Virus record (IMG/VR): IMGVR_UViG_3300001528_000425
Span: 171,560 to 235,559 of that record
Strand: one strand, 5' to 3'
Source: a virus
Taxonomy: Duplodnaviria; Caudoviricetes
Length of the DNA: 64,000 bases
Below the pieces are notes generated by a model, which saw nothing but the letters and a program-made list of their open reading frames with translations, had not been told where the DNA came from and did no database searches. The translations under genes were made by a program, and so were the position numbers. Below are positions 29,225 through 60,397 of the stretch, piece after piece. Every line of letters begins with the position of its first letter. The stretch's first letter is position 1.

Positions 29225-31083
29225 CGTTATGTTCAAGAGAACGCGCTACTGTCCTCCCCGCGGCATGACCCGCTCCGCTGCAAGCTTTCCTTGCAGACCA
29301 GACTATATCTCCACCTTCACCATTACGTGGTCAGGTGCACTTCTATTTCCTCGCCGCTTGGCAAGTACAGGGTGGATCAGTCCCTTAGTCGTTGAACTCA
29401 CCTCATGTCGATATACAGGATATATCGATTTAGAGGGCAGCTGCGGATTACCCATTACAGCGATCGCGTCTAGAAAATCCCATCTAGTCGATCATCTCGA
29501 TTTCTTTTACCATACCCAGGTTAATTACTCCTGGCCCCACAGTAATCACGTTTCCGGCTGTGGTTGGTGTATCGAGCTTTAGTGGCTTCCCGTCAATTAA
29601 GAAGTGAATAGTTAAGCATTTCTGCTTAACCAGCCATCAAATCTTTGAGATAGTAAATGGATCTGAAGGTTTACTGTATCGTAACGCTCGTTTGATAAAT
29701 TTCCTATCAACACCCAGCGCTTTCGCAGCTTCCCTCAGCGAATGAAACGTGCGTTCTTCTCCAGTTGCTTTATCAACAACCTTCATCTGAACGTTCTTGA
29801 ACTTGTTTTGTAAAACAGTGGTTGGCCATGCATGAGATGACTTGAACCTAACCCGGAACCGCCCGATCATCTTCTTTCCACCAGTCTTCGCTGCTAAGAT
29901 CAAACTACAGCGAGAGATGCCAACATAAGCTGCAGCTTCTCTCTGGTTGTGAAACGACCGAACATCTCCGGTGTCAGTATCTAGAACTTGTATCACCTTA
30001 GGAACACACTGATCCGTATAGGTAGCAGTATATCCAGGATAACGCGCTTCGAACTCTTCGATCGTCTCCCGTACCGACTTGCAGATATTCCACAAACCGA
30101 AATACTTGACGAACGTTCGAACCCCGTTGAACACAAGTTCCTTACCATCTGGATCAACGACTGTGATGATGTACCTAGATGGTTCCACGTTCACAGTCGG
30201 TCGATCATAGACCCAAGGTCTAGTGTCACCTTCCACCCGTACTTCCCACTCTTCGTTGTACAATCGATTCCCTCTCCAGCTAGCCAATGTAGCAGCTTCA
30301 CGAGAACCTAACCCAAGATATGCTCTTGCTTGTGAGATACTGGGAAATTCTTTGATCTCTCCAGTTTTCGCACTTCTCAAGAAACACTTCGTGGTTGGAC
30401 GAAGGTTGTGGTTGATCGCATGGAGGTTGTTACCTCTGATCGTTGTCCATTCCAGATTACTTGCATGATTGTTAAACTTATTACCATCGAGATGGTTCAC
30501 GATAGTGTAGAAGCCTAACCTTGGGTTATGTACCCAAGCCATGGCAACGAGGATGTGTATCGCTTTACCAATTCGTTTCTGGATGATCGTGTCCATGACG
30601 AATACTTGACGGTATTGCCCACGCAAACCTACACTGAGATGTGCTCCAGTCTTCACATCGATCACGTCTCCATCTATGGAAACCGCAACCGAAGGATACT
30701 CTGGTACGATCCTGTACGTTTCGTCATACATGATCGGTGTCCTGAATTCCACAACATAAGGGAACTCCGGTCTCCGACTGTCCATCCTGCTGTGGAAGAA
30801 GACGTCATCCGGAACAACCGGTACGTATTCTCCCAACCCTAATCTGGAGATTAGGAACAACCATCGCCTGGATCGTTGTTGTGTTTTACAATACATTTCA
30901 ATTGAGACAAGATCTCCTGCCGTTGGCAGATTCACTTCTCTCTTGTTTTCATCAACAATCTTCAAACGGTTATTGATGAAAAGCTTTTCATTCGTTCCTG
31001 GTATCACGTAGTACATAGATTCCTCCGTTTTCAGATTCTATATAATAGTGTACCATCTTCCTTTTTACTTACCTCAAAACGAT
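29225..31083 (-). mobile_element. Group I intron in nvRNAP beta, carrying an HNH ORF
   Basis: Core P AATTGACGGGAA, Q AATCCGCAGC, R GTTCAACGACTA and S GATATAGTC within 29225-29640; splits GRDGx/KGVV; 5' boundary uncertain by about 2 nt. Confidence 0.9.
29637..31016 (-). CDS. Intron-encoded HNH homing endonuclease with NUMOD1-like repeats
   Basis: IHILVAMAW..VNHLDGNKFNNHASNLEW; repeated TGE..F.S..EAA motifs. Confidence 0.9.
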   Translation of the reverse strand: MYYVIPGTNEKLFINNRLKIVDENKREVNLPTAGDLVSIEMYCKTQQRSRRWLFLISRLGLGEYVPVVPDDVFFHSRMDSRRPEFPYVVEFRTPIMYDETYRIVPEYPSVAVSIDGDVIDVKTGAHLSVGLRGQYRQVFVMDTIIQKRIGKAIHILVAMAWVHNPRLGFYTIVNHLDGNKFNNHASNLEWTTIRGNNLHAINHNLRPTTKCFLRSAKTGEIKEFPSISQARAYLGLGSREAATLASWRGNRLYNEEWEVRVEGDTRPWVYDRPTVNVEPSRYIITVVDPDGKELVFNGVRTFVKYFGLWNICKSVRETIEEFEARYPGYTATYTDQCVPKVIQVLDTDTGDVRSFHNQREAAAYVGISRCSLILAAKTGGKKMIGRFRVRFKSSHAWPTTVLQNKFKNVQMKVVDKATGEERTFHSLREAAKALGVDRKFIKRALRYSKPSDPFTISKI

Positions 31084-32304
31084 TGCTCCGTCCCGGCCTG
31101 TAAATTTAAATCCCCTTCCAACCTTACGTTTGTAAGCGTAAGTGATTTCCACGGAAATAAACTCAACCGGTTCTTTCTTGTCGATCAGTTGAAGTTTGGA
31201 ACGAACTCGATTCCTTGGTGCCAACAGTCCGATGCATCTTGTGACCAGAGTATTGAATTCCGGTCGCAATTCATAACCATCCGATTGGACTTTGTCGTAG
31301 ATCGCCAGAATGGCCTGATGATATGCATCGTGTTGTTCTTTGTACTTCACGAATTGCTCATAAGGCCCTTGACGATTCTTCAATCGTTTGTACGCATCGA
31401 AGTTGATGTATACATTGACATCGAGTACTGTCGATCCTGCCGGAGCATAATGACACTGATCGTGCATCTTCTCCGTACGCATCAACGCTTCCGCTGTCAT
31501 GTCGGTAATGAACGTCGTCTTATTCCGTTGACGGAGGCCGACAAGGACTCCATCGGAACGTAACTGACTGCCGATATCCGGGAAGGCTTTATACTCTTCC
31601 AGAGAACCATAGAGGTTCAGAGGAACATCATCTTCTCGGATGTTCAGTTTCATCGTGCCGATCGCAGTGTGCTCATTCTTCTCCGCATATTCATCAGAAA
31701 TCAGGAATGCGTCCTCGGTAACTTCCCATCCACTCAAATAAGCAACTGCTGCATTGGTGCCAAGACAGTAGAGATTACCTTTGTGATTGGGAGATGTGAC
31801 GAACTTGGTTTCCTTGGATACGTGGTTGTTGTTGGTCAGGAGATAAGAATTCAGCATCGTGTTCATGTAGCCAAAGCCATCGTGCAACTGACGATAGTTG
31901 GTAACATCGAAGTAACCGATCTTCTGATCATCTTGTCCAACATAGATGACAGTCATCGTGGGGTTGGTCAACCCATCCGAACTCCAACATGTAGTCTGGA
32001 ACTTCGGTATGACTGCCAAGATGATGATGTCCTGATCACGTCTGGTGTCATCGAATTCATAACGACCGATGATACCTTCGTATCCGGTACATACCATCGG
32101 AGGTTCACATCCATCGACCACCAGAGCTTGCGCGATGTTACTGGCGAACATCATCGCTCGCTGACTTGATACGTACTGCGGAAATGGCAGTAGCAAGGCT
32201 TGTAAGCCTAAGAATTCATACCGCATCTTTAAGTCGGACAACAATCGATTTGGATTATCCCGTCCATAAGGATATCGACTTTTGCCCGTTGCAGCATCGT
32301 CCAT
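31084..32304 (-). CDS. Non-virion RNAP beta C-terminal subunit, exon 1 (gp71-like)
   Basis: SSQRAMMFASNIAQAL, EDAFLIS, GFKFTGRDG (cf. GDKxxGRHG). Confidence 0.9.
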
Positions 32305-32458
32305 ACTGTTCCTCCTGTTAGTTAGTAGGTTGATATAAATTTGGTTAGAACCATCATATGCTCGGTCTTAGTACCTGGCATACCCCTCATGAACGTAATA
32401 TATACGTAAACTTAGGATGTACCTTTAAGGCATCTTGTTGAATAAAGGAACTATCGTT

Positions 32459-32815
32459 ATGGCCACAACTTACAACACATTGGCTGATCGCTGCGAGTCC
32501 AAACTTGGTGATTATTCCAATACCGATACAGGATGGGTACAATTTGTAAAAGATCACAGGGAGATGCTGCTGCAAAACTCTACGGTCTTAGAGATGTCCC
32601 TGGAAGTAGCGCACCGATATCGGTTCAGTCTTGCACTACTTTTATACGATCGATCCATGGATCAAAGTACCATGTGGATCATCATGTGGTTGAACCAAAT
32701 CTCAGCTGAGCATGAGTTCAAGCAACTACAACGTTTGCTGATTCCGACGAATGAATACTTGGCTACACTGAAAGCTCAGTACGATTCCAATAAACAAGCG
32801 GCAGAATCAGTTTAA
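32459..32815 (+). CDS. Small conserved protein, possibly baseplate wedge (T4 gp53-like)
   Basis: LLYD....WIIMWLNQI...LLIP pattern; AAGGA RBS. Confidence 0.45.
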   Translation: MATTYNTLADRCESKLGDYSNTDTGWVQFVKDHREMLLQNSTVLEMSLEVAHRYRFSLALLLYDRSMDQSTMWIIMWLNQISAEHEFKQLQRLLIPTNEYLATLKAQYDSNKQAAESV

Positions 32816-32821
32816 ACGAGC

Positions 32822-33286
32822 TTACACGATCCTGGCGATCTTCGTCCAAGCTTGAGCTAAATCTGGCAGTAGCCAGAGATAGTCATACTTCTCCATCCAT
32901 TCATTGATCATACTGCGGGGCACCTTGTAGGTGTTTCGCAGTATGTATCTGAATTCTTTCTTCATGTACTCAACATAATCGTGACCAACGGCCATCGAGA
33001 TACGATCTTTGGTACGATAGAGATGGAGCAAGGACCGATCTTCAGAAGAAGCTCCTTGCTGAAGAGATTCGAACTTCTCCATACCAGATTTGGTGGTCAG
33101 TGCACCAAGATTGAACAGGATCAGATTGTGGATCGGATAATACTCCAATCCTGATTCGATCTTCTGTACAGAGATGAGTCTTTTGAGAACTTCCTGTGTG
33201 ACTAGAGAATACTCATTGAGCATCTCCACAATAATTCCATGAAGAACCATACGTTCTTCGACGGTATATTTCGGTTTGAAAATCAT
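32822..33286 (-). CDS. Hypothetical protein
   Basis: Start reassigned to MIFKPKY (AAGGA RBS). Confidence 0.6.
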   Translation of the reverse strand: MIFKPKYTVEERMVLHGIIVEMLNEYSLVTQEVLKRLISVQKIESGLEYYPIHNLILFNLGALTTKSGMEKFESLQQGASSEDRSLLHLYRTKDRISMAVGHDYVEYMKKEFRYILRNTYKVPRSMINEWMEKYDYLWLLPDLAQAWTKIARIV

Positions 33287-33299
33287 GAACTGGTGTTCC

Positions 33300-34331
33300 T
33301 TATGGCAACCAAGAGATAGAACCGGATTTGGTAGCGACGTTGAAATTGTTTCCGATGAAGTTGAAAGTACCTTCCAGACAGTTGAACGTCTGAAGTTTGC
33401 AATTGACCGTATATGCAGTACCAACGGTGAGGGTGTCGTTGGCACCGATCGTGGTGGTACGGTTCGTCTCGACGTTCAGTGTATCTTCACCGATCGTGGT
33501 GGTATTCTTCTTGATCACGGTGGTTTCCATGGCGTTTTCAACGGTAACCTTACGAACATCTTTAACTGTCAAGGTATCCGCCTTCTCCACCAAGGTGGTT
33601 CTTACTTCACAAGTTGTGATGATATTGGGAGCGGTGATATTGATCGTGTTCAGGCAACCGATGTTGATCACGTCTTTGATCAGCGAAATAGTACTCTCAT
33701 GGTTGTTGTGAAGCACGATCTGGGGAATGTTGCTATCCAGCTCGATCCAATTGTTGGCATCGTCGTTGATACGTACCGTGTTAGCGATCGTGTTGATCGC
33801 GATGTCATAGCGGAACGCTTCCCCGTTGTTCCGACAGGTACGGATGAAGATACCACGACTTTCTGGACGAGTATCAAGTTCGATATAGTAGGTGTTGTCA
33901 GCATCGACGTTCTTCCAAGTACCCGGCTGTCCTTTGTCGATGATCGCAACATCATCTTGCACAAAGATACGAAGCCGTTCGAAGTTGCGTACTTCCGTAT
34001 GTTGTCCAGTCGGTCTCCAGTAGAATACATCGAGTCCACCATAAGTGATGACTTCCACCAATTCTCCTCGATGTACACAGGGAACTGTCATGTTATCGCG
34101 TCCGAAATACTTCGCCTTGACGCACTGGGCTATGGCGATCGTGTCTTTATCTTTCACCCCTTTCAGTGCATCGAACGTTTCGAATTCGATCGAGGATGCG
34201 ACATTCTCCACATCTCCTGTGTGCATAGGAGATACTTCCGGGAGAAAGACTAAGATTTCAGTGTCAGTACCGTTTTGAATGGTTGTACATGAGACACCGA
34301 TATAGGCCTTCCATTGTGATTCTATTTGCAT
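33300..34331 (-). CDS. Baseplate hub/central spike protein
   Basis: NMTVPCVHRGELV..FYW N-domain plus C-terminal 8-residue gp5/VgrG-type beta repeats (TTTIGANDTLTVG). Confidence 0.65.
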   Translation of the reverse strand: MQIESQWKAYIGVSCTTIQNGTDTEILVFLPEVSPMHTGDVENVASSIEFETFDALKGVKDKDTIAIAQCVKAKYFGRDNMTVPCVHRGELVEVITYGGLDVFYWRPTGQHTEVRNFERLRIFVQDDVAIIDKGQPGTWKNVDADNTYYIELDTRPESRGIFIRTCRNNGEAFRYDIAINTIANTVRINDDANNWIELDSNIPQIVLHNNHESTISLIKDVINIGCLNTINITAPNIITTCEVRTTLVEKADTLTVKDVRKVTVENAMETTVIKKNTTTIGEDTLNVETNRTTTIGANDTLTVGTAYTVNCKLQTFNCLEGTFNFIGNNFNVATKSGSISWLP

Positions 34332-34413
34332 GCGATGGATCTCCAAAAAAATAAGGGCCTGATAGAAAGAGCTACAGTGGGTCTTTACGACCCACTGTAG
34401 CTCCCTGAGAGAA

Positions 34414-35526
34414 TTACCAGTTGCCCGCCATCACGGAAACAGGAGCCATTCCGTTAACAGGACAACCGCCGGAGACAGGTTGACCGAAGTGCATACCAGT
34501 CAGCGGAGCCGGAGTGAAACCGACCGGAACCGGAACAGACGCCACGGGGACGGTGATCGGTGCCGTAATCGGAGTACTCTCTGCCGGTACGATCGTACCG
34601 GGAATCACGCCATTGGTCGGGATACCAACCGGACCGATGTTTGCACCTTCCGGGAGCGGAACTCCAGTGCTGGTCTTGGTTGGTGCTGTTCCCCACGGAA
34701 CTGCAGGTTTTTCCGAGGAAACGGAGGCGGCCGATGTGCCGGTGGCGAACCAGGCGATGAGCTTCTGATATTTCTCGAGGTGTTCGAGATGAGAAGCCAG
34801 AACTTGAGGATGAAGGTCGACGTTGAGGATCTTCTTGACATGCGGATTGAGCCGGTTGGCTGCCATCGACATGATGTGGAAGATCGCATCGGCTTTCGGT
34901 ATCGCCACATTGGCGGACGTGAACGTGAACTTCGCTTCGATATCATCCGTACCGAAGATCAGAGCCATGAGTCCGCGGAAGACTTCCCAGGACTGTTTCC
35001 TGATCTTGTTGCCGAGCGACTCCTGAAGCTGGGTATTGAAGATATCGGACTGGAGCTGTGCGGTGTGGGTCGCTTTGTCGTAAAAGATGTACGCCCACTC
35101 CATCACTTTGATTCGATCGATCTCTTTGAGCATCTTCTCATCGAGTTTGTCATAGAATGCTGTGACAAGATCGAGTTTTTCGTAATCGGTGTCTTTGCCC
35201 TTGTCGATCGCAATTTCCACGATGCGAGTGAACAGCTGCTTGAGCATGCCACCGATCAGAAGCTGCCGGGACTGGAAGAACCATTCGCGCTCCGGAGCTT
35301 TGCCGAGCGTTTCGACGAGAGGATTGAGAACGACATAGTTGCCGACTTTCATCCCATCCTTGAACAGAGCCACCGGAAGAGTCTTCTTACCGACGGCCAC
35401 GCCGATCGGAGAATTGTCCGAGGTGGTCAGGATGATCTGATTCATGTCCACGTAATACGCTCCACCAAACTCAGTCACGAGTTTGAGGAACGCATACACG
35501 GAATCCTGGTTGATGATTTGTTCCAT
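34414..35526 (-). CDS. Chimalliviridae core protein (phiKZ gp70-like)
   Basis: Synteny between the gp69-like and gp71-like genes; LNPLVE motif; Pro-rich disordered tail. Confidence 0.55.
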   Translation of the reverse strand: MEQIINQDSVYAFLKLVTEFGGAYYVDMNQIILTTSDNSPIGVAVGKKTLPVALFKDGMKVGNYVVLNPLVETLGKAPEREWFFQSRQLLIGGMLKQLFTRIVEIAIDKGKDTDYEKLDLVTAFYDKLDEKMLKEIDRIKVMEWAYIFYDKATHTAQLQSDIFNTQLQESLGNKIRKQSWEVFRGLMALIFGTDDIEAKFTFTSANVAIPKADAIFHIMSMAANRLNPHVKKILNVDLHPQVLASHLEHLEKYQKLIAWFATGTSAASVSSEKPAVPWGTAPTKTSTGVPLPEGANIGPVGIPTNGVIPGTIVPAESTPITAPITVPVASVPVPVGFTPAPLTGMHFGQPVSGGCPVNGMAPVSVMAGNW

Positions 35527-35573
35527 GATGCGTTGTTTCCTTTTCGTTATTTCACGACGTGTGAATCTGTAAG

Positions 35574-37271
35574 TTAATGACGAGCCACCACTACTTCGTC
35601 ACCGAACCCGTAAGAAGGTGCGGGCATCGGTTGTTGACCGAATGGTCCTCCGAAGGATGCCTGGTGCATACCCGGAGGCTGGCTATCGAACATGAGTTTG
35701 CGTCCGACCACTCGATCCCCAAGTACCGCCAATTCCGTTCCGTTGTGGATGAATGTATCCCTGGAACCGAGTAGCGGATTGTGAGTGACCGGGAGCCGAT
35801 TGCTGGTTTCGTAATATCCGGAACCTTCGTTGGATACCGAGAAATCCATGAAGTGCAGGTCGACGATCGTTTCCGAACCCAAGTCATGGCGACAATGTAA
35901 TTCGAAATCTCCGCTTGCCGACTTCAGGATCGGAACGATGTCCGAACAGAAGTTGATCCGGAACATGTTGATCGCTGCCTCCAGCTGGTTAGCAGCGACT
36001 GTCGGATTCGGATCGGGGCAGAGCAAGTGAGCCGGTTCGATCTCCGGGTGATTCTGATCATAATGCAACTGGAAAAGTCCGTTACGATCAGCTGCCATCG
36101 CAGATGTGAATGATCTGAACCCGAACCGAATATCTGCCAGACCAGCACTGCTTGCCAGCGTCGAAATCGCAGAAGCAACCATCGAAGAGAACTGCACCTT
36201 AGCACTGATCTCTGTCTGCGGAATCACGTCATACTGCGAACGTCTGGCGATATTCAGTACCTGCACGGCAAGTTTACCGCCGAAAGTGGCATCCAGATAA
36301 CCGAGAGTGAACGGCTGAGAGACATCGATGCCGATATTAACCGGAATGGTTCCGACTGAACGATGAAGACCATGCCGGAAATCACTGACAGCTTGTTCTA
36401 CCGGATCGTACGCTCCAAGGAATCCGGTCTGACTCAAATCACTTTGCGTCGCGAATTCTTCGGACTTGGCCGTGTCGATGGCGCTCTGCAGATGAGTGGT
36501 GATCTCCTGGAGATGATGTCGCGGTGACTTCAGTCTGGTCGGGATCGGTGCCTGTTCGTTGTTCAATGTGGCAACCGCTGCAGCTCCTTCTGTGGTCACT
36601 CTGGACACCATATTGCCAAGAGAATCCTTGACGATATCACCGACATTACTGACAGCATCGCCAGGAGTACAGATGAACAGATCCTGTTGCGGAGTCATCG
36701 AACTCATGTATGCACCGACGATATCGTCATCGTCCGATACGATACGATTCGGGATACCACCAACCATACCGATACGGTCTCCGATACGAAGGACCGAACG
36801 ATGCGTGGTATACAGCATGCAGTTCTGATTGATCACCGGCTGCGCATTGTTCATAGACCACGGGAGAACCGGTTCATCCGAACACCAGCCAGATGCCATC
36901 AGTCGGATCTTCGATCCGCATCCGGCAATACCCAGCGCATTCGGTGCCGTTGGCATGTCGATCATGAGAACGAACGTCCATTGTGCGGACATCGTCTGCA
37001 TGTCGACCATAAGTCCGTTGGCTTCCGGTCGAATGGCAGAATTGAATGCTGGATCTTCGAACAAACCTCCGTTGCGGAGAGCCATCCTCGGATCTTGCAT
37101 CGTCGACAACTTATCGACCATGTTGCCGTTGAACTGATACACATACGGTCGAATGACCTGTGTGTCGAACGTCTTGGGGCTGTACAGCCACAGCCAAGCC
37201 GATGATTCGTTGAATGTCGAAGCACCGAATTGACTGACTTGTGAATAAATGGGAAGCGGTTTGTCGAACAT
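35574..37271 (-). CDS. Putative phage-nucleus import factor PicA/Imp1 (phiKZ gp69-like)
   Basis: Synteny (gp68-like upstream, gp70-like downstream), size and the TQVIRPY motif. Confidence 0.55.
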   Translation of the reverse strand: MFDKPLPIYSQVSQFGASTFNESSAWLWLYSPKTFDTQVIRPYVYQFNGNMVDKLSTMQDPRMALRNGGLFEDPAFNSAIRPEANGLMVDMQTMSAQWTFVLMIDMPTAPNALGIAGCGSKIRLMASGWCSDEPVLPWSMNNAQPVINQNCMLYTTHRSVLRIGDRIGMVGGIPNRIVSDDDDIVGAYMSSMTPQQDLFICTPGDAVSNVGDIVKDSLGNMVSRVTTEGAAAVATLNNEQAPIPTRLKSPRHHLQEITTHLQSAIDTAKSEEFATQSDLSQTGFLGAYDPVEQAVSDFRHGLHRSVGTIPVNIGIDVSQPFTLGYLDATFGGKLAVQVLNIARRSQYDVIPQTEISAKVQFSSMVASAISTLASSAGLADIRFGFRSFTSAMAADRNGLFQLHYDQNHPEIEPAHLLCPDPNPTVAANQLEAAINMFRINFCSDIVPILKSASGDFELHCRHDLGSETIVDLHFMDFSVSNEGSGYYETSNRLPVTHNPLLGSRDTFIHNGTELAVLGDRVVGRKLMFDSQPPGMHQASFGGPFGQQPMPAPSYGFGDEVVVARH

Positions 37272-37306
37272 AAGACCTCCTGTTATTATCTATGTTCTTG
37301 TTGTTA

Positions 37307-38662
37307 TCAAAGGATCAGACTACCGAACCACGAGCATTCATAATCATCAAGCAGGGCCCTGCAACCCAACGCCAGAAATATGAAGTCGAAGTAATACCTG
37401 ATAATCATTCCATCCTCGTACTTATAGGTAATATATGCGTCGTCATTGAATGACCGATAGAGAGAGATCGTTGCGATCGGTACTCTATGATTCATAACAG
37501 CTGCAGATTCCATTAAGCGATGGTACAGTTCCAGTCCTTGTACCGATTGGATAGAAAGATTCAGAGGTACTTCTTGTTGTCTCCTCATGTTTGAGTTAAC
37601 TGATTTTATCGTCTGATCCGGCGTATACGCATTCCAAAAGTTACCCTCCCATGTATGCTGAGTACACTCGAAGGAGAACTCTGTATATGGTAGTTCCTCT
37701 ATGTATTTATTTAAGGCGTGAAATACAGGAACCTCGTGCTCTTCCAGTCCGACTTTGACATCTGGTGTGAGTGGAAACGGGGTTCGCAATGGTATCCTCG
37801 CATAAGGCCGCATGACGATCGCACTGCTGATCATGGAGATGAAAGGTTCTGTGCTTTCACATCCAGCAAGTGCCATACGTCCCACGCTGCCACGCATACA
37901 AGGATGATCTTTCCATTGTTCCTGAAAACCACACACTGGCTGTCCGGCTGGTCTGCGACGTTCCCACGGATGGTGAACTTTAACCAATTCTTTCGGAATA
38001 CTGAAGAATCTGGCTGTTTCCACAATGTCATCTGCAGGTATCATAGCTCCATTACAGATAAGAGAATTGGGATTCTCCATCACGCACCTCCTGAGATCCG
38101 CGAAAGAAGGATGATAACTTAAATAATCCAACTCTTGCGGAGTCGCTTCTACAGAAGTGCATGCTGTATTGTACACATTCGTAATGTCGTACAGCAAGTT
38201 GTACAAAGCCGCCGTGAAGTAGTAATGGGACTGGACTCCCCTCTGATCGAATGACCTGACACCGATCGGAGCGATGTTGACAGCTTCTCGACGTGGATCG
38301 AGGATGGTCTGTGGAGTTACTTCGCCGTACGCAACGGCGAGGTACTCCAACATCAACCCTTGATGCTGTTCAACGATCTTGACTTTCTCAAAGTTGGTAT
38401 CAACTCGATCAAGATTTCTCCCTAACCAGAAATACTCCTCAGTCGCGATGCCATCACGATGAGTAATAATCTCCGGGGAGAATGTACTGAAATTTATGAT
38501 CCCCTGATAACCTTTCCAGTGGTTGACCAGGGGAACAATATCAACGATCATAGCACAGCGAACCTCCAAGTTAAATGGGACACCAAGATTTACGTAGTGT
38601 AAGGTAATCCCTTGTTGCAGCATCTGACTCTGCTGTTGAAGTAGCTCCGAAGAACAATACAT
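37307..38662 (-). CDS. Hypothetical protein
   Basis: 451-aa ORF. Confidence 0.7.
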   Translation of the reverse strand: MYCSSELLQQQSQMLQQGITLHYVNLGVPFNLEVRCAMIVDIVPLVNHWKGYQGIINFSTFSPEIITHRDGIATEEYFWLGRNLDRVDTNFEKVKIVEQHQGLMLEYLAVAYGEVTPQTILDPRREAVNIAPIGVRSFDQRGVQSHYYFTAALYNLLYDITNVYNTACTSVEATPQELDYLSYHPSFADLRRCVMENPNSLICNGAMIPADDIVETARFFSIPKELVKVHHPWERRRPAGQPVCGFQEQWKDHPCMRGSVGRMALAGCESTEPFISMISSAIVMRPYARIPLRTPFPLTPDVKVGLEEHEVPVFHALNKYIEELPYTEFSFECTQHTWEGNFWNAYTPDQTIKSVNSNMRRQQEVPLNLSIQSVQGLELYHRLMESAAVMNHRVPIATISLYRSFNDDAYITYKYEDGMIIRYYFDFIFLALGCRALLDDYECSWFGSLIL

Positions 38663-50839: not shown

Positions 50840-51103
50840 TCATGGCGTTGCGTTGACTTCGTATCCAAGAATCTTCAAGATTTCGGTATCCAAATCGCTG
50901 ACAACTCCAACAGTCTTCTCCAAAGCGGCAATCCTCGCTTCGAGATCTGCTCCTCCACCTGTGTTGTCAACCCATTCGGTTGTACCGTCTTCTTTAACGG
51001 AAAGAATCTGTCCAGCTTCTCCAGGGATCTCGGGAGCAAGCACTCTCTTCTGGATCTCTGGTAGCAAACTCTTTCCATTGATGATCACGGATGTTTGTTT
51101 CAT
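50840..51103 (-). CDS. Short tail-fibre-like protein
   Basis: GQILSVKEDGTTEWVD and LEARIAALE motifs. Confidence 0.55.
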   Translation of the reverse strand: MKQTSVIINGKSLLPEIQKRVLAPEIPGEAGQILSVKEDGTTEWVDNTGGGADLEARIAALEKTVGVVSDLDTEILKILGYEVNATP

Positions 51104-51184
51104 AGGGCTTGGTTCCTCCTATTCAAATAAGATGTATAAAATGGTACGTACTACTGTGGGAATTCCCACAGTAGTACGTGAGCT

Positions 51185-51622
51185 TTATTCAATTACATGC
51201 TTCAGATGCATCTTAATGGAATTGTCCTTCTTACGATGACAAGGACGACATAACCACATGACTTCAAGTGGTTTGGAGTAATCATCATGGTGCATCTCCA
51301 GATGATCGATCGATCCACAGATCTCACAGGGTTGTGGAATCAAGATACCTTTCCGTCTTGCGACATTAGCCAGGTATCTTGCATGGTATCGATCTGGATG
51401 TTTCTTCCGGTCTTCTGCTGCTCTACGTCTACCTTCTTCGGATCTAGATTTCATTCGAGAATATTCTCGGTACTTCTCTAGCTTCCTCTGTCGGATATGA
51501 TACTGCGCTGTTTTGGCACAATCTTTACATAGATACAGCAGATTGTCTTTTGAAGTTGGATGGTGATAATACTCCGTGAAAGGCTTATACAATCCGCACT
51601 TACTACAGACTTTAGCCGGCAT
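51185..51622 (-). CDS. Free-standing Zn-binding HNH-type endonuclease
   Basis: CSKC..CKDC, CEICG..HHDDYSKPLEVMWLCRPCH; start uncertain. Confidence 0.7.
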   Translation of the reverse strand: MPAKVCSKCGLYKPFTEYYHHPTSKDNLLYLCKDCAKTAQYHIRQRKLEKYREYSRMKSRSEEGRRRAAEDRKKHPDRYHARYLANVARRKGILIPQPCEICGSIDHLEMHHDDYSKPLEVMWLCRPCHRKKDNSIKMHLKHVIE

Positions 51623-51695
51623 CAGGTCATCTGTTCCCGGATCAACTGGTACCCAATCGGGTAATTCAAGCGGGATATCGAAGGTGTCTCCTGAC

Positions 51696-52325
51696 TTAGA
51701 AGGGAATATCGTCGTCGGAATTGCCGGAGCCGCCTCCATTGCCTCCGTTGTTTCCGCCGTAGCTATTTCCTCCTCGAAAGGAGTTACCCCCATTGTAGTT
51801 GCCACCACCGTTACCGCCATGGCGGTTCGGATCGTATTTCTCATCCGTCCAGATGACCGCCAGCATCGTGCGTTCGAACCACTCGATCATGGTCTCGAAG
51901 GCGAACGCCGACTTGTCCGCATTGCTCATCGGATCGGAGCCGATGGAAATACCGCCGGTGCCGCGGAAGACGAAGTCGAACGTCCGGTTGCCGTCCAGAC
52001 AGTTCGTCAGCGTGACATGATAGAGCATCTCGGCATCCTTGGAGAAAGTGAGAACCCACTCCAGCGCCCACTGTTTGGTCTCCGGATTGAACTTCTCTTT
52101 CTTCACCGGGATCTTGGTTTCAGGAGCCGCTTTGCGGATCTTGTTGAATGCCGATTTCAGAACTTCGTAGAGATACGGAGTGACGTTGATCTTGATCGGC
52201 GGTTTGCCGCCACCCTTGGTGAAGACGGCGAATGAGATCGTTCCCTTGAAAACGCTCAGATTCAGGGATTCCCCGGAAGCCTTGTTGTCCAGAGTAAACG
52301 GTCTGATGAAGAGTTCCTTTTCCAT
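51696..52325 (-). CDS. ChmC-like nucleic-acid-binding protein (phiKZ gp67-like)
   Basis: Position two genes after the SbcD-like gene; Gly/Asn-rich disordered tail ending DDDIPF; high-expression codons. Confidence 0.55.
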   Translation of the reverse strand: MEKELFIRPFTLDNKASGESLNLSVFKGTISFAVFTKGGGKPPIKINVTPYLYEVLKSAFNKIRKAAPETKIPVKKEKFNPETKQWALEWVLTFSKDAEMLYHVTLTNCLDGNRTFDFVFRGTGGISIGSDPMSNADKSAFAFETMIEWFERTMLAVIWTDEKYDPNRHGGNGGGNYNGGNSFRGGNSYGGNNGGNGGGSGNSDDDIPF

Positions 52326-52339
52326 TTGATTCATTCCTT

Positions 52340-53203
52340 TTATTTAAGGTTGTTGGGTACTTCGATATTGAGTCTTTGGAGAGCATCGTTGATATACATG
52401 GGAGTATGCATCGTCCAACGCTCTTGTTCTGCCACTTCCAGCACACGTTTCTTGTCTTTTGGAGATAATGTTCCTTTCACGACCTCACTATCCCCGAATA
52501 ACAAATGTGTTGCTACAGTAAATGGTACCTGTGGATGTTTAAATACGTAGTTGCCGATCGTGTTACGATCTGCTTTCAGAAGATCTCCGGTGAAACTCTT
52601 GATGATATCACCTTCATACCACTGATAGACGTGATAGTCGATCGGAACATGACTGATCATCCTCACCTTCGGTCTTGCCACGGGGAACTTAGCCAGCGAT
52701 CCTCTGATCGCTAGGTAACTCGGTAGTATACTGTCACTATGAACAACTGCTACTTGTAATTTACCCAGCTGCTGCCGATGCTGTGGAAGTACAGCTCGTA
52801 ATAGAGTCGTTCCCGTTCTGATCTTGGCTCTCTGTTGGCTATCCTTCCGTTGGAGATCAGGAGGAAGCTGTCGTTCATACTGCATCGTATAAAAAATAAG
52901 AGCCTTGTTCAGAGTACCTTGAGAGAGCTGCTCAGAGAACTCCCTGATGATACCAGATACGTCCGCTTCGATGGCTTTCGCGATCTGATGGAAAGATGTA
53001 TCCTTATGCAAGCGATTACGCACTAATGTACTTAGATTGATCAGGATGATCTCCTCTGCATCCTGTACTCCAGATCCCATCTTATCTTGTCGAAATAACT
53101 CCAACAAGCGATCGATAGGAGCTGTCGTACCGAAGGAATACCGACCCTCCTCATCCAAGGAGGGCTGTTGTTGTGGCTTTGCCATATCTTCCAGTACGAT
53201 CAT
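52340..53203 (-). CDS. Chimalliviridae core protein (phiKZ gp66-like)
   Basis: INLSTLVRN, SHVPID and PF...LLFGD motifs; synteny. Confidence 0.55.
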   Translation of the reverse strand: MIVLEDMAKPQQQPSLDEEGRYSFGTTAPIDRLLELFRQDKMGSGVQDAEEIILINLSTLVRNRLHKDTSFHQIAKAIEADVSGIIREFSEQLSQGTLNKALIFYTMQYERQLPPDLQRKDSQQRAKIRTGTTLLRAVLPQHRQQLGKLQVAVVHSDSILPSYLAIRGSLAKFPVARPKVRMISHVPIDYHVYQWYEGDIIKSFTGDLLKADRNTIGNYVFKHPQVPFTVATHLLFGDSEVVKGTLSPKDKKRVLEVAEQERWTMHTPMYINDALQRLNIEVPNNLK

Positions 53204-53206
53204 GTA

Positions 53207-54349
53207 TCAACCCTCCTTTCCAGCTACCGTTTCGAGGATATTTTGTATCCTCTGTGTGGTTATGTTGGGATGCTTATTTTTGACGTGTTCGAACAACAAA
53301 ACCCCGATATTTGCCTTAGTTATTTGGGGCAAATTCTCTAACTGTTGATTTGTGTTCGGAAGCACTTGAGTCTGTTTCTTCACTGGAGGTTTCGTGATAG
53401 CAAGACCCTTAGCGTGCTTCTTACTCCAGTCCTCCAGCACCTCTGCAATCAAAGGTGTACTGGTTAACAACCGAAGATAAACAGTCGGTCTTAACGGATT
53501 CTGGAGTTTCATGTGTTCTTCGAACCATGGTTCGAATTTAACCAATGCGTCTTCAACAGAGTCGTAATCACGAAGATCTGCAGTGAGACACAAAGTTGCA
53601 TCCGTATTTTCGATGAACTCGAATTTGGTCTCTCTGGTTTTAGTATCGATCGTAACCAGAAAGAATCCCTTTGCCTCTTCTTCGCCGTGAGCGAATCGTT
53701 CAAAGGAACCACATGAGATAATGTTCTTGTAGATGCCAGGTTTGTGGACGTGACCGTTCATGACGACTGTCGGGTGGAACTGTTTGTTGACAGCTTTCTC
53801 CGTGAGTGTATGTTGTGGTAACATCGGTATCCCTGGTGGAAGCAGATGATCGAAGTATCCGTGATGTACGATTACATCTACTCGTTCGAGTTGGAGATCT
53901 TTCATCTTCTGAAGTGCTAACTCCATGTGATCTCCAGGAAGATCATCCGGCATATACAAGATGTGTTGTTGGTATCGTTCGATATATTCGATATCGATCG
54001 TGTCGAATACTTTGATCCGACCATCTTCCGTTGTCTGGAAGAATTGATTCTGATTCCTGTCGTGCACATAAGTGCCTCGCACAACTCTTATCATAAAATC
54101 TTGCGCATAAGCCATCTCCGCTAGCTCTTGGATGATGATAACAGCTTCCAAGCTAGATTCGGAACTCATGTGTAATAAGGTATCCCAAAAGTCTCCGGCT
54201 ATGACCAAGATATCGATATCCTTCAAACGAGGATACAGATGTTTCCTAAACTTAGCATGTAAACATTTGGGATTGATACGAGGATTGCCCATATGCACGT
54301 CAGATAGAAGCAGATATCGTACAAGTTGTGCGGTCTTTTCTTTTACCAT
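53207..54349 (-). CDS. SbcD/Mre11-like metallophosphoesterase nuclease
   Basis: SDVH, AGDFWD, GTYVHD, HHG, GHVH, GSFER. Confidence 0.85.
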   Translation of the reverse strand: MVKEKTAQLVRYLLLSDVHMGNPRINPKCLHAKFRKHLYPRLKDIDILVIAGDFWDTLLHMSSESSLEAVIIIQELAEMAYAQDFMIRVVRGTYVHDRNQNQFFQTTEDGRIKVFDTIDIEYIERYQQHILYMPDDLPGDHMELALQKMKDLQLERVDVIVHHGYFDHLLPPGIPMLPQHTLTEKAVNKQFHPTVVMNGHVHKPGIYKNIISCGSFERFAHGEEEAKGFFLVTIDTKTRETKFEFIENTDATLCLTADLRDYDSVEDALVKFEPWFEEHMKLQNPLRPTVYLRLLTSTPLIAEVLEDWSKKHAKGLAITKPPVKKQTQVLPNTNQQLENLPQITKANIGVLLFEHVKNKHPNITTQRIQNILETVAGKEG

Positions 54350-54352
54350 ACC

Positions 54353-54955
54353 TTACGTCCATTCGAAATCGTCGGTGTCCACTTCATCGTCCGGTTTCTT
54401 CATTGACGAAGCGTCCTTACTGAACTCTTCTAGGATTTTATCTGTAGCGGCTTCATGTTCTGGAGTTGGCTTCGCCAACGTCTGAACCGCCGTGCGAAAG
54501 TAATGTCCGATGATAGCAGCACGTTCTGAAAGAGGATTGTCGTAGCCTGCCGAATTCATAAACATCGTGACCAACGTTGCTCCCTGTGGGAACACATCTG
54601 TCATCTGTCTCATCTCATCCATGATGGGAGGAAATCGTTTCAGAACGATCACGTTACCGTGTTCATCTCTCTTGTCATCGATAAGTGTGATATCTCGATA
54701 GAGATTCAGTCGACGACGAAGTTCGTCGCTCAACTTCAATCGTTCATCTTTACTCAACTTACCACATGCTTCCACATTGAACAATGGAGCGAATTTCTTG
54801 AATTCACTGGCTTTGATCACATTCCTGTTGATCGCAGCTTGTTCCATATCTGGCAATTGGTTAGCCAATGCCACTAAATCTTCGATCTGACCAGTTACTG
54901 GAGTCTCCAGTCCTTTGATCTTTAGATTCTTGGGTTTCGAAGCTTCCATCCTCAC
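54353..54955 (-). CDS. Conserved hypothetical protein
   Basis: GGAGG RBS; GTGA overlap with the upstream gene. Confidence 0.65.
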   Translation of the reverse strand: MRMEASKPKNLKIKGLETPVTGQIEDLVALANQLPDMEQAAINRNVIKASEFKKFAPLFNVEACGKLSKDERLKLSDELRRRLNLYRDITLIDDKRDEHGNVIVLKRFPPIMDEMRQMTDVFPQGATLVTMFMNSAGYDNPLSERAAIIGHYFRTAVQTLAKPTPEHEAATDKILEEFSKDASSMKKPDDEVDTDDFEWT

Positions 54956-55365
54956 GCCTCCGATACCGTTTCAGGGATAAGGTTGCCATCTGCGTCGATA
55001 CCGATCTTCTTCATCGGCACGATCGGGTTACCAAGAGCATCCGATACCAGAATACTGAGACCGAATGCCCCGTTCTCTTCCACGTCTTCTGCACCAACAG
55101 TCACCATAGGAGCATCGTTCGGGAAATAACGTCTGAAGCAATTCTGAAGTGCCTCTTGGATCGAATCCGCTAGTCGGGTCGGAGTACGGCCAGCATTCGC
55201 ATTGATTACACGGAATGAAATCATCTCAGATTCGTGGAAACTGCTTGTCCATCCAGGGTTGGCGAACATAAATTGCAGTACGTAAGTGATGATGTCCTCT
55301 TTCTTCTTGAGGACAGTAGTGGGACCAGCATGGAACGTTGGTATGACGGGAGTCTTATCAGCCAT
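54952..55365 (-). CDS. Conserved hypothetical protein
   Basis: AAGGAG RBS; 137 aa. Confidence 0.65.
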   Translation of the reverse strand: MADKTPVIPTFHAGPTTVLKKKEDIITYVLQFMFANPGWTSSFHESEMISFRVINANAGRTPTRLADSIQEALQNCFRRYFPNDAPMVTVGAEDVEENGAFGLSILVSDALGNPIVPMKKIGIDADGNLIPETVSEA

Positions 55366-55549
55366 GACCGCTTTCTCCTTGTTATTTGAGCTAAGTTTAC
55401 TTAGAGTATATTAAAGCGATCCTGTTTATTTTTATACTAAGTTTTCTTGATGAAAACAAAAAAAAAAGAAAGGAGTCGATGGATGAGCGATGGAGTCAGT
55501 CCGTTAAGACTCACACCATCGCTAAGGAGAACATCCATCAACTAGAAAG

Positions 55550-55819
55550 AACTCACAACAAGATCAGTGATCACATAGGCATAGTCCCGAATCGAACAGG
55601 ACTCCTCAGTTATGCCACATTCACGACCGTACACGTCCAGTTTTCATACCAAGATCTCAACTACACGGATGCAGTTGATCAGTACGTGCTGACCCACTTG
55701 CTGTGTACACCAGCGTGGGATTTATACGAGCAAGGACGCAACAGGGAAGTATGACCCGTGTGCAGACCACATGATGTTACACCACATACCATCTGCGAGT
55801 CACCTACCTGTTGTGAGTT
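55550..55819 (-). ncRNA. Unassigned ~270-nt structured RNA
   Basis: Terminal stem AACTCACAACAGG/CTTGTTGTGAGTT enclosing many stems and a T-loop-like hairpin; G-U pairs favour the minus strand. Confidence 0.65.
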
Positions 55820-55823
55820 TAAG

Positions 55824-56459
55824 TCATTTCAACTTGCCGATACGATTCGGGATATCAGTGATATCCATACGATCGCCTCTGAGCTGATCTTCCAAGAAGT
55901 TATCAACCCATTCCCGAGACGCTCTCAGCTTGGACAGTTCATCGAAGTCGTACACAGGGTCATCACTTCGGAACGTATAACCGACCGGACGATCGTTCGG
56001 AATATCCGGATGGTTGAAGTAAGATGTTCCGTTATCCAACAGACGTCCAACCACATCCTCATCCGGGAGTTTACTGGCATCCACACCCCATCCGTAGATC
56101 AGTCCCTGATCATACAGATCCCTGACTTTCGGCATCGTCAGAATCGGAATATGCATGCATGATGGAATATTCTCCAGCGCTTCCTGGTTATCGATCACCA
56201 CGATGGTGTCCGGATGGAAGATCGCTGCAGTTGCCGCATTCAACGCGCTCACCGCAGCTCCATCCATTTCCTGGATCTTCTGAGTGAACGCATCGTATCG
56301 GTTACTGAATCCCATGCTGGAAGCTGATCCGAACAGGACACCTGCCGCATCAGCGAATTGATTATTAAGTCGACTGAACACCGCTTGATTCCCGGAATGC
56401 CCTGTATACATTCCAAGTACCGGTGCAGTCATCACGTCAAGAACTTGCAATACAACCAT
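55824..56459 (-). CDS. Chimalliviridae core protein (phiKZ gp59-like)
   Basis: IPSCMHIPILTMPKVRDLYDQGLIYGW motif; position after the gp55-like gene. Confidence 0.55.
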   Translation of the reverse strand: MVVLQVLDVMTAPVLGMYTGHSGNQAVFSRLNNQFADAAGVLFGSASSMGFSNRYDAFTQKIQEMDGAAVSALNAATAAIFHPDTIVVIDNQEALENIPSCMHIPILTMPKVRDLYDQGLIYGWGVDASKLPDEDVVGRLLDNGTSYFNHPDIPNDRPVGYTFRSDDPVYDFDELSKLRASREWVDNFLEDQLRGDRMDITDIPNRIGKLK

Positions 56460-56657
56460 AAAACTTCTCCTGTAAAGTAACTTGCTACATGATAGTAGCG
56501 TTCTATATTTTAATACTCTGTTGATTCTTCCTAGGATCAGGGGATCACATATGTAATATATGATCGAATCAAGTAAGAATATATCGCAAGCTATGTCGTA
56601 TAAAAAAAGAAAGAAGCAAGGAGAGGGAGCACGATGCTCCCTCTCCTTGTGTTGTTG

Positions 56658-56852
56658 TCAGTATCCTCCGACTACCAACGGATCTCCTTCACCTGCCAAC
56701 CAACGGTTGGCTGCAAGGGAATACTCGTTAGTGAGTTTCACATCGTTGGTTAAACTGTCTCCAGTTCCACCGAGCAATGTAGTCATCGGATGCACTGCCA
56801 TGAACTTGATGACCTCAGCCATCTCTTTCAGAGCAACCCCATAGATCTGATC
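56658..56852 (-). CDS. nvRNAP beta' (gp55-like) exon 4
   Basis: Starts DQIYGVAL after the intron terminal G, supplying the last Asp of NADFDGD. Confidence 0.85.
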   Translation of the reverse strand, partial: DQIYGVALKEMAEVIKFMAVHPMTTLLGGTGDSLTNDVKLTNEYSLAANRWLAGEGDPLVVGGY

Positions 56853-57389
56853 CATTGTGTTCACTGTGTTCGCTAATCACAGCAGTGTCGTTTCAGACAC
56901 ATCTCTAGCTTTCACTAGACGACCAGGTATATCCTGGAAGCGTGTATAATGATCCATATACACGGTGCAGACTATATCACCATCTCCTCATGATCGTATC
57001 TGTCCGAGTACCAGGATTCGAACCTGGGACGTTCTGCTCCCAAAGCAGACGCGCTACCACTGCGCTACACTCGGACAGATACTACCATCAAGGAGACCCC
57101 TACCGTTACGGGATCGCATGATCCCTCTCGATTTGATGACTCAAATACATTTAGTCGTTGGGCATTTAGGAACATCTCTGTTCCATTTAGCTGCTGAAGA
57201 CCCATTTGCTGATAACATCGTTGCTCAAATGCTATCAACTAGTCCTTAGGATTTAACCATAGACCATCTCCACACTTGTTTCTACTTTCGTTCCTATGCG
57301 ATAAGTTGCATAGGCAGTGGAGCTATTAGGGATTGCCAGCGATTAGATAAGTTTGCTACGCAGATCGCTCTACGTAGGGAGCAGATCAC
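56853..57389 (-). mobile_element. Group I intron 3 (ORF-less, tRNA-containing) splitting DFDG/D
   Basis: P1 GGAGT/GCTCC, P AATCGCTGGCAA, Q CTTCAGCAGC, R CAACGACTA, S GATATAGTC. Confidence 0.9.
57003..57074 (-). tRNA. tRNA-Pro(UGG) embedded in intron P8; no encoded CCA
   Basis: CCGAGTG/TACTCGG acceptor, GCGC D-stem, TCTGC-TTTGGGA-GCAGA anticodon arm, CCAGG-TTCGAAT-CCTGG T-arm. Confidence 0.92.
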
Positions 57390-57410
57390 TCCATCGAAGT
57401 CAGCATTAGG
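57390..57410 (-). CDS. nvRNAP beta' micro-exon 3 (PNADFDG)
   Basis: CCT AAT GCT GAC TTC GAT GGA between two intron cores. Confidence 0.9.
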
Positions 57411-58669
57411 CCTAATGGTCAAGTGGAATCGCAACTTCCACCGTGTGTGCTATGACACACCCTCAGTGTTTCCAAAGAGGAGCAGACTATATCAGACATC
57501 TCGAATATCACGTGTTTATCCGAGATCCTTCTCCGTTTCAGCATCCTTGCGGATGGTGGTAGCTTGTACCACACGCCATATGCTTGCGCCCTACGTCCCT
57601 GTTGGAACTAGTCGTTGAACACATCGTCTACATGAGACGACTTCGTTGCGATGATTGAGCCAATCCTTTTACTTTTTATATCCATCATAGCTTACCTCGC
57701 GGTTACTATTGTGGCTAAAAGGCTCTAAGGCTCTTCCCGCAATTAGAAGAAGTACGCACATCCTATCACTAAGATGTGGGCCCGGTGATTGTTTTATCAG
57801 TTTCCGAAGATCTTCGTTTCTTATACCTAGAATAATCAATTGGTGTTAAACGAATCGGTTTCTTATACGGAATGCCATATTGTTCAGCTATATGCCGATG
57901 TGTCCCGTGTGCAACGATATGTTGAATCGCTGTAACAGGAACATTCAACTCTCGACTAATTGCTGTCAATTTCATTCCATCCTGAATTCGTTTACATACC
58001 GCATGTACTTGCTCTTCTGTCATAGCTGACTTACGGAGCCCGTGTATCCTGGCATGTAGATGATTATCGTAAGCCGAACACCATTCCAAGTTATCAGCTG
58101 CATTGTTAGCTTTGTTGCCATCAGTGTGATTGACTTCTAATAACTTGTTAGGATTTGGTACGAACGCAAGAGCTACCAGTCGATGGATCTTCACCGACTT
58201 AAGTGATCCGGAACCTGTGTATCCGAATCTTAGATAAGTGCAGTAATAACCGCTGTTGTTTGGTGCTCCTGTTATCATCTGGTAGGTACGTTTGTTCCAT
58301 ATCCTACCATCCCGTAAGATGATGTAATTCGGGAATCCTAGACTCTCCAAACTACATTGATCTTCCGGAGGGATTTCCTTCAATTCATTGTGAAAATATT
58401 TCCGCCATAGATAATCCGTACTGAAAGTTTTAGACTTATTATCTTTCCATACGAATACAGTTGGTCCGAAATGTTTTAATTCTCGACCACTACGTTCATC
58501 TACAACGGTCTTATCTTCATAAAACCTGATGAAAGGATACCCTTCTTCTTCGAGTAATACTGATGCCTGTTGTTTCATTGCACTTCTTACCTCTGGCTTA
58601 TTAGAGTTAGGCTGTCTTCCGACAGCCCTCATCAAGCCTTCGGAAGACAGTGTGCAACGACAATCGTTG
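57411..58669 (-). mobile_element. Group I intron 2 with HNH ORF
   Basis: Canonical GCT|...G|CCT junction (SISA/PNADF); IGS GGCTG; P AATTGCGGGAA, R GTTCAACGACTA, S GATATAGTC. Confidence 0.9.
57769..58578 (-). CDS. Intron-encoded HNH homing endonuclease
   Basis: IHRLVALAFVPNP..VNHTDGNKANNAADNLEW and C-terminal HTH; start reassigned to MKQQA. Confidence 0.88.
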   Translation of the reverse strand: MKQQASVLLEEEGYPFIRFYEDKTVVDERSGRELKHFGPTVFVWKDNKSKTFSTDYLWRKYFHNELKEIPPEDQCSLESLGFPNYIILRDGRIWNKRTYQMITGAPNNSGYYCTYLRFGYTGSGSLKSVKIHRLVALAFVPNPNKLLEVNHTDGNKANNAADNLEWCSAYDNHLHARIHGLRKSAMTEEQVHAVCKRIQDGMKLTAISRELNVPVTAIQHIVAHGTHRHIAEQYGIPYKKPIRLTPIDYSRYKKRRSSETDKTITGPTS

Positions 58670-58775
58670 AGCTGAAATGCTGAGCGGAGATAACCCAATA
58701 GAGTCATCTTCGATCTCTGGTTTGATCTTCGTTGCAAAGAAGAGTTGTATGGCTCCATGTCGCAACGTTGGATTT
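58670..58775 (-). CDS. nvRNAP beta' exon 2
   Basis: NPTLRHGAIQLFFATKIKPEIEDDSIGLSPLSISA (cf. RxPTL..SIQ); 5' boundary uncertain by 1-3 nt. Confidence 0.88.
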
Positions 58776-59168
58776 TGCAGTGTTCGGCGTAGGCGCTAAC
58801 TACACCCGCATCGTTTCAGATACTGCTCCGCCTTTCGGTCGGACGACCAGGTATATCCTGGAAGAACTCTTGCGAGTTGGCCAGACTAGCTCATCACCAC
58901 ATCCCTTATGAGACAAGGTGTGTAACGTTTGGAGCCCGCTTGGTGCTCTACTCTCCGTCCGTAGATAGGAGATAGTCGTTGAACTACCGTTAGGTAGCTG
59001 CTGAAGACCCACTGCCTAGTCCATTTAGGATTTAACCTTGTGGACATCCGTATACTTGTTTCTACTTTCGTCACTCAACCAGCTAAGGTTAAGCTACACG
59101 GCTTTAGGGATTGCCAGCAATTGGTTACATGATCGATCCTGCTTTCGCAAGAAAGGGAGCTATCCTTA
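58776..59168 (-). mobile_element. Group I intron 1 (ORF-less)
   Basis: P1 GGGAGT/GCTCCC, P AATTGCTGGCAA, Q CTTCAGCAGC, R GTTCAACGACTA, S-like GCTAGTC; paralogous to intron 3. Confidence 0.88.
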
Positions 59169-60397
59169 CTCCCGAGTAAAACAGGCAGACCCTTGTAAGG
59201 GCATTCATCCATCAGTCTCTGGATCACATCGTACACATCCTGATCGAACTCTACCAATGCCCTCGCATGCTTCTCATAAGCATCCGGATAGGACATGTGA
59301 TAATGCCGAACAAGGAAGTTGATGATCTCCAGCTTCCACTGGGCAACGCCGATCCTCCATGGGAGGTGACATTCATCTGCCTTGTGTTCTGTTACGATCG
59401 GAACGATAACAGCACGGAATGTGTTGTTCAACCTCGAAGCCAACAGGGATTTCCGGATGAACCCATATTTGCTGACCAACTTGATCTTGGTGATCTTCTC
59501 AACATAGTTGAGATAAGATTTGTACACGTTGTAGCTGTACTGCTCCAAGTAGTTTCGGTTGGCTGCACTATGAGCGATTGGGTTATGCCTGTAGTTGTAG
59601 ATCGCGCTGGATAACTCGATACATGTTTCGAGGATGGACGTAGACACATCGTCGTTGTAGGTCAACGTTCCACTCTTGGTCAAGATATGCAGAGCTTGAT
59701 TCAGTACCGGAACATGTCTGATGAACATTACGTTCCTGTACGTATCCACGAATTCCTTGATGAACAAGTTCTTCTTGGATTTGGCTCCGGTGTTTTGGTT
59801 GAGGAAATAGTTGATGATGTTATCGAAGTTCTCGTAGAAATAGGCTGGACCTTGTCCCAAGATACTGCCATAGGGTTCTGGAAGTTCACTGTCAACATCG
59901 AGGAGAAGATCGATGATCTTCTTCTTGCGTTTGACGCAACCCATCCATTTACCCAAGATCCGATAAGCTGCAGGATGCAGCATCGGAGGCATGAACTCTG
60001 GGATCTCCAGCCATGCACGGAACTTGATCTCATCTGCGAAGGCGTCGCGAACTTCCGTGTTGCAATATGGACAGATCGTACCTTTGGCGAAGTTACCTTT
60101 GGTTCGTTCACATTTGCAACTGGCGATGAAGTTCAAGTTGCTGTCGCTCTCTTGGAACAACATCTTCTTGATCGTCTCGATAGAGTTGTTCGCGACGTCT
60201 ACACCGTCCAACTCTTGGCCACATGGAACGATCATCGCATTCGGATCTTGATGGAATTCCCTATCGAAATCGAACAACCGTAACTTCGTCACGGTTGCAT
60301 GTTTCTTTGGGTTACACCATCGATCCGATGAGGCGTAATACGCCCTGACGATCGCTTCTGCGTCAACGTTCGGCTTGAATATACTACTGAACCACAT
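59169..60397 (-). CDS. nvRNAP beta' N-terminal subunit (phiKZ gp55-like) exon 1
   Basis: AGGAGG RBS at MWFSS; zinc site CKC..CPYC, KYGFIRK, RAVIVP; ends GLPVLLG. Confidence 0.88.

Follow-up and report, generated by a model that had tools for sequence, protein, structure and literature searches.

The 64,000-nucleotide stretch analysed here (the window) spans positions 171,560 to 235,559 of IMG/VR record IMGVR_UViG_3300001528_000425, a complete phage of 235,559 bp, and carries four group I introns, all on the minus strand, within two genes for subunits of RNA polymerase (RNAP). The gene at 60397-56658 (-) encodes a phiKZ gp55-like beta-prime subunit of a non-virion RNAP and contains introns 1, 2 and 3, and the gene at 32304-28310 (-) encodes the RNAP beta subunit and contains the beta intron. 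The former product is a split N-terminal beta-prime subunit with the RNPTL and NADFDGD motifs of the phiKZ-like non-virion RNAP, and the homologue P0023 matches phiKZ gp55 (7ogp_A) at 6e-47. The exons, introns and intron parts are as follows.

59169..60397 (-): beta-prime exon 1, N-terminal, phiKZ gp55-like, ending ...GGGAG
58776..59168 (-): intron 1, 393 nt, without an open reading frame (ORF), IA2-like; first base U, last base A
59159 (-): guide C of intron 1, pairing with the last G of the exon
59146-59143 (-): GAAA loop of P2 in intron 1
59007-59004 (-): UCUU of J5/4 in intron 1
58881-58880 with 58778-58777 (-): P9.0 of intron 1, GC with GC
58670..58775 (-): beta-prime exon 2, 106 nt, completing the Arg of GRNPTL
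57411..58669 (-): intron 2, canonical U|...G|, with an HNH ORF at about 58578-57769
57389..57410 (-): beta-prime exon 3, 22 nt, encoding PNADFDG and supplying base 1 of the Asp codon
56852..57388 (-): intron 3, 537 nt, without an ORF; starts with U and ends with G
57381 and 57368-57365 (-): guide C and GCGA loop of P2 in intron 3, of which P9.0 is CA/UG
57002..57074 (-): tRNA-Pro(UGG) within P8 of intron 3
56658..56851 (-): beta-prime exon 4; spliced protein 516 aa
31084..32304 (-): beta exon 1, C-terminal part of RNAP beta, ending GCA (Ala)
29225..31083 (-): beta intron, 1859 nt, canonical-type core, terminal G, P9.0 GU/AC
31016-29637 (-): HNH/NUMOD1 ORF in the P1 loop of the beta intron
29635 (-): guide G of the beta intron, facing the last A of the exon
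28310..29224 (-): beta exon 2, starting AAA GGT (KGVV); spliced protein 711 aa

All four introns possess a group I core, with P3-P9 and an intact guanosine-binding pair in P7, the strands of which are unchanged throughout. Intron 2 (61.9 bits) and the beta intron (52.4 bits) scored above the cut-off of Rfam RF00028. The scores of intron 1 (27.3 bits) and intron 3 (25.8 bits) were weaker, and an alignment found P3-P9 plus the conserved core in both.

Every junction pair was enumerated for each intron, and the products were compared with conserved protein motifs. A canonical U|...G| join exists for intron 2 (58670/57410), as the original prediction had stated. For introns 1 and 3 and the beta intron no canonical join keeps the motifs, so that the claim that these three depart from the U|...G| rule was borne out by exhaustive enumeration; three introns with non-standard predicted splice ends are present in the RNAP genes. 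In intron 1, the Arg of GRNPTL is kept by a single join, 59169 (last exon base)/58775 (first exon base), with a G at the 5′ site and a terminal A, and the remaining in-frame joins place Q, K or S at the Arg position. Since Arg is restored by AG|A alone, intron 1 must end in A. In intron 3, DFDGD is kept by GGA|GAU or GGAG|AU, both with a terminal G, and also by a join one base earlier with a terminal U; the 5′ exon ends in A or G in all of these joins. No join of the beta intron with a U-ending exon keeps GRDGAKGVV.

The comparison with intron-less homologues, which had been put forward earlier as a check, favours the proposed joins, because GRNP, DFDGD and GRDGAKGVV are conserved. Arg-Asn is found in 47/47 homologues showing the motif and in phiKZ gp55 too, GRDGAKGVV is found in seven intron-less homologues, and the closest relative, L001, which is intron-less at the sites of introns 1 and 3, reads GRNP and DFDGDQ. 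The spliced beta-prime (516 aa) and beta (711 aa) proteins align over their full length with intron-less homologues at 44-46% and 67-69% identity, respectively. A separate JGI assembly, 3300001525, which may derive from the same reads, has an intron 1 that is 100% identical, and it differs from the beta gene at 1 of 9236 bases and at no junction.

In introns 1 and 3, the motifs and the geometry together put the 5′ cut between G and U, the U being the first base of the intron. A family with the same core was collected by pattern searches of phages, metagenomes and metagenome-assembled genomes; some members carry TnpB. Short DNA patterns matched mostly by chance. The 5′ exons of this family end in G, and U usually comes next, as is characteristic of group B IStrons. 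Positions were counted upstream from the GNRA loop of P2, using a spacing of 12 nt between guide and loop, reportedly described by Michel and Westhof in 1990, which was tested here against controls; no statement of it was found in the literature searched. The base 12 nt before this loop is C in 42/42 related introns with a GNRA P2, all picked by core motif, and it faces the last G of the exon. In canonical relatives (L001 B/C/D, L121, L123, L126 and L146), the same position holds G opposite U; the L148 row and the L121 guide index were not used as support. Since the family has C and its canonical relatives have G at position 12, the register at the 5′ cut appears to be conserved and the cut-site pair to have changed from U.G to G-C. 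The same geometry, with C at 12 and a restored kinase frame, is found in an IStron copy of Clostridium botulinum BKT015925, taken from the plasmid studied in 10.1101/2023.11.20.567912. The orthologues of intron 3 in L121, L123 and L145 share its junction. Among the window introns, U.G stands at the 5′ site of intron 2 alone; introns 1 and 3 have G-C, and the beta intron has A opposite G.

P1 has a U.G cap in introns 1 and 3, and a canonical cut after the U of this pair could be followed by one-base trimming, editing or a +1 frameshift. However, the base 5′ of the guide C varies among the 42 relatives (G in 27, U in 12 and A in 3), and U.G is thus not the determinant of the cut site; no G faces that position in 15/42, and some relatives (L076, L108 and L099) start with A. 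In BcISt1, a group B IStron of Bacillus cereus, the G|U 5′ site has been proven by RT-PCR, and the U belongs to the intron, since the intron circle contained it and the ligated exons did not (PMC4227781). A canonical cut with subsequent repair is, on these grounds, scarcely credible. The shifted splice-site selection that the original prediction had also considered is supported for introns 1 and 3 and agrees with the G|U site proven experimentally in group B IStrons. At the His-Gly site, the family introns of L076 (1003), L108 (2570) and L126 start with A, so A faces G at their first position.

The resemblance to group B (IS607-type) IStrons extends to the IA2-like core, a G at the end of the 5′ exon, following a GG- or AG-type site, U as the first intron base and a U.G one step above the cut, and the TnpB-carrying IStron members share core motifs with introns 1 and 3. 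Unlike IStrons, introns 1 and 3 lack TnpA and TnpB, and neither has a guide RNA scaffold or an AU-rich stem: no TnpA/TnpB-type ORF of 60 or more codons was found in either, and their 3′ ends lie 108 and 118 nt past P7. They end in GCA (intron 1) and UGG (intron 3), as against CGG in IStrons, and they occupy fixed sites in a phage RNAP gene, some of their relatives carrying HNH genes. Intron 3 would work like a group B IStron ribozyme yet is no IStron, having neither TnpA nor TnpB nor the CGG end. Introns 1 and 3 both have UCUU as J5/4, in place of the receptor with AA found in canonical relatives. UCUU is a lead, but it was rejected as a requirement for G|U splicing, because J5/4 is canonical in the C. 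botulinum copy examined and the sample had been selected on the UCUU motif. In the tree, the introns that follow a G do not form one clade. A G-type intron followed by a TnpB-like ORF was also seen at L044 4560-5500, where it interrupts the Walker A motif of a 208-kb phage's helicase, and the cores of the L076, L123, L126 and L145 introns contain HNH ORFs.

At the 3′ splice sites, bases 3-4 after the 3′ strand of P7 pair with the two bases preceding the last intron base, forming P9.0. This pairing is 2/2 in all four window introns, through four different dinucleotides. In intron 3, P9.0 picks the second G, which gives GGAG|AU. In intron 1, it picks A 58776, a register that P10 shares by pairing at +3 to +6; the AG|A junction proposed earlier is supported by P9.0 as well as by the uniqueness of the Arg-keeping join, and the proposed GGAU/AUCC register of P10 also holds. 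Intron 1, thus, ends in A, and introns 2, 3 and beta end in G. The missing terminal G leaves intron 1 within the group I class because exceptions are known. The sea-anemone (hexacoral) mitochondrial intron ND5-717 has a published terminal A (PMC8146996) and, like intron 1, is a natural A-ending intron in an essential protein gene, but it is giant and gene-carrying, whereas intron 1 is small, comes from a phage and in addition has no U at the 5′ site.

The closest relatives of intron 1, L121 (85% identical) and L145 (78%), both need a terminal A, as does L123 (67%). Those in L121 and L145 are inserted six codons downstream, after His-Gly codons, and same-site relatives with a terminal G (L076 and L108) fix the insertion point. 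P9.0 is AA/UU in L121, L145 and L123, versus GC/GC in intron 1. P10 is 7/7 in L123 and L145, where it tracks synonymous codon changes, and reaches at most 3/6 when slid. In L099, the terminal A is required at a site two bases upstream of that of intron 1, and P9.0 is weaker. Exon homology combined with P9.0 and P10, thus, assigns a terminal A to intron 1, L121, L123 and L145 and, less firmly, to L099; the four relatives come from independent ENA, NCBI and metagenome assemblies. The intron of L145 carries an HNH ORF, which suggests that the A-ending type is mobile.

Intron 1 might instead use a terminal G, either through a GGG/CUG join with Gln for Arg or through cryptic G sites that add or delete residues, with much of the mRNA faulty. 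In-frame G-ending joins are available, and the IStron ribozyme strongly prefers a terminal G. Against these stand the Arg-Asn of every homologue counted above, the shift of the cut by 2 nt from the conserved register in the Gln join, and L121, L123 and L145, in which no G-ending join keeps GAIQ and, in the latter two, the A-ending P10 is perfect. We therefore regard use of a terminal G as improbable.

Several other ideas were rejected. One was a single origin of the terminal A (p-AU 0.003); the A-ending introns do not form one clade, and the introns may be mosaics. J8/7 at 58884-58892 has AGC where AUA is usual, in common with L121 and L145, and such a change is no requirement for a terminal A, as it is not present in L123 or L099. 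CUUCC of the 3′ extension was dismissed as a guide, being unconserved in L108 or L123. L051 (minus strand, in a tail protein gene) was not accepted as a terminal-A case because its reading frame is ambiguous and depends on the start codon.

The beta intron groups with the canonical introns L146 and L148 in the tree (support 100/99), both of which lie at the same site with GCU|...G|. Its orthologues, whose HNH proteins are 56% and 45% identical, have the canonical GCU|...G| at that site, L143 is canonical there too, and a canonical intron in L108 shares its last seven bases. The 5′ exon ends in GCA versus GCU in the orthologues. When the ORF was removed, the fold gave a long P1 with the last A of the exon unpaired opposite the guide G at 29635, 12 nt from the GAAA loop, as the original prediction had proposed. 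Mismatches at the 5′ splice-site pair are reported to be partly tolerated in vitro. The most plausible reading of the beta intron is that it is canonical and that the last base of its 5′ exon has undergone a private, synonymous change from U to A. GGAG at or just before the junction had been noted as common to the three anomalous introns; it was rejected as a shared cause, because the beta intron is from a different, canonical lineage. Upstream of the junction its orthologues read GGT GCT and GGC GCT, and the GGAG of the beta exon is coincidental.

The A may also be a sequencing or consensus error for a true GCU, or a harmful mutation of recent origin that makes splicing less efficient. The GCU of the orthologues and a synonymous change coming from one sample speak for this; however, the two assemblies, which may share reads, agree at this base and differ at another, and the intron is otherwise intact, in a gene that is presumably essential. 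We consider an error or a harmful mutation unlikely, though still a serious contender. Another register of the beta intron, GGAG| with a terminal A or GGAGC| with a terminal C via a local hairpin, has less in its favour: both joins also yield GRDGAKGVV and a weak local hairpin can form, but no CUCC-type guide stands at position 12, and P9.0, the terminal G and all same-site orthologues favour the GCA|AAA join. Such a register is very improbable.

Taken together, the junctions are best explained by geometry-set splice sites in ordinary group I ribozymes, a reading to which we give a probability of roughly 0.8. Splicing would proceed in the ordinary two steps, at sites that depend on geometry and not on which bases stand at the ends. 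The 5′ cut would fall after the exon base paired with the guide base 12 nt before the GNRA loop of P2, and the 3′ cut one base past the 2-bp P9.0 helix, supported by P10. Introns 1 and 3 would represent a group-B-IStron-like IA2 lineage whose guide C makes the exon end in G, the nearby U.G not being the cut site; intron 3 would have a normal terminal G, and intron 1 would end in A, its second step probably being less efficient when the guanosine pocket, itself unchanged, holds A. The beta intron would be of the canonical type, its private U-to-A leaving A opposite the guide G. Since this one set of geometric rules (12-nt guide, P9.0 and P10) gives in-frame, motif-perfect products, the trimming, editing and recoding raised by the original prediction are not needed to explain the junctions.

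Several observations weigh against this explanation. P9.0 is just 2 bp and pairs only 1/2 in L099, L076 and L108. The 42 introns were picked by core motif and are not independent, and a DNA polymerase intron of the same phage (G000 35620-35990, L003) has its U.G at 13, not 12. In-frame G-ending cryptic sites that would break the motif lie near intron 1, and some mis-splicing of intron 1 is likely. The alternative 3′ sites of CboIStron, the C. botulinum IStron, all ended in G, and its splicing was severely cut by changes in the terminal trinucleotide (PMC13521648). The A opposite G in the beta intron was seen in one sample only. The analysis deals directly with sequences, pairings, their conservation and the uniqueness of the motif-keeping joins, from which we infer splicing at the proposed sites in vivo and its efficiency.

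HNH-bearing introns of the PhiPA3 gp210 type (PMC11620839) occur in phiKZ-like RNAP genes. Intron 2 and the beta intron share this gene class and the HNH-type mobility and belong to the same type; the beta intron differs in having A opposite its guide G. A term search of the PhiPA3 paper (PMC11620839) found neither junction data nor a non-canonical junction. The tRNA-Pro(UGG) in P8 of intron 3 is retained in the orthologous intron of L121 (7916-7992), and in L001 (9848-9921) a tRNA-Pro plus an ORF lies within a different, canonical intron. Four introns each lie within the same 60 codons of the beta-prime gene in L001 (7230-10605), L121 (6246-8139) and L123 (6230-8908), at partly different sites. 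The 3′ splice site of intron 2 is the centre of a 14-bp palindrome (57404-57417). Just upstream of the beta-prime gene, at 60482-60624 (-), Rfam identifies a tRNA-like element (39.3 bits) whose variable arm holds an insert of roughly 70 nt; ARAGORN made no call for it. A lone intron R-like 9-mer in a coding region at 61316-61324 (-) has no Rfam match and is probably due to chance. The window also contains a 2130-aa ORF at 12038-18430 (-).

The two end oddities of intron 1 each have a published precedent, and intron 1 combines them; both universal end bases appear to be missing from one intron, a combination that was not found in the literature searched. The cut after A in the beta intron is the one among the oddities that has no published precedent. 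The gene models of two RNAP subunits are corrected here with no appeal to editing or recoding, and annotation pipelines built on the U|...G| rule will splice these genes wrongly. Intron 1, at 393 nt, is a convenient natural substrate for weighing the roles of U.G and the terminal G, and ribozymes that cut after G could widen the targets of trans-splicing and circular-RNA methods.

CboIStron splices scarlessly without protein (10.1101/2023.11.20.567912), and the cause of the cut one base before U.G in BcISt1 was left open by the authors (PMC4227781). The geometry described here addresses that question with a testable answer, and the G|U 5′ splice site is extended from IStrons to ORF-less and HNH-carrying phage introns. 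More tentatively, and at slightly less than even odds, these may be a mobile lineage of small phage introns that self-splice accurately and protein-free without both universal end bases (G-C and terminal A), through a remodelled J4/5-J5/4 receptor and a purely geometric choice of site; the 'one-base shift' of IStrons would then be a change of base-pair specificity at a conserved register.

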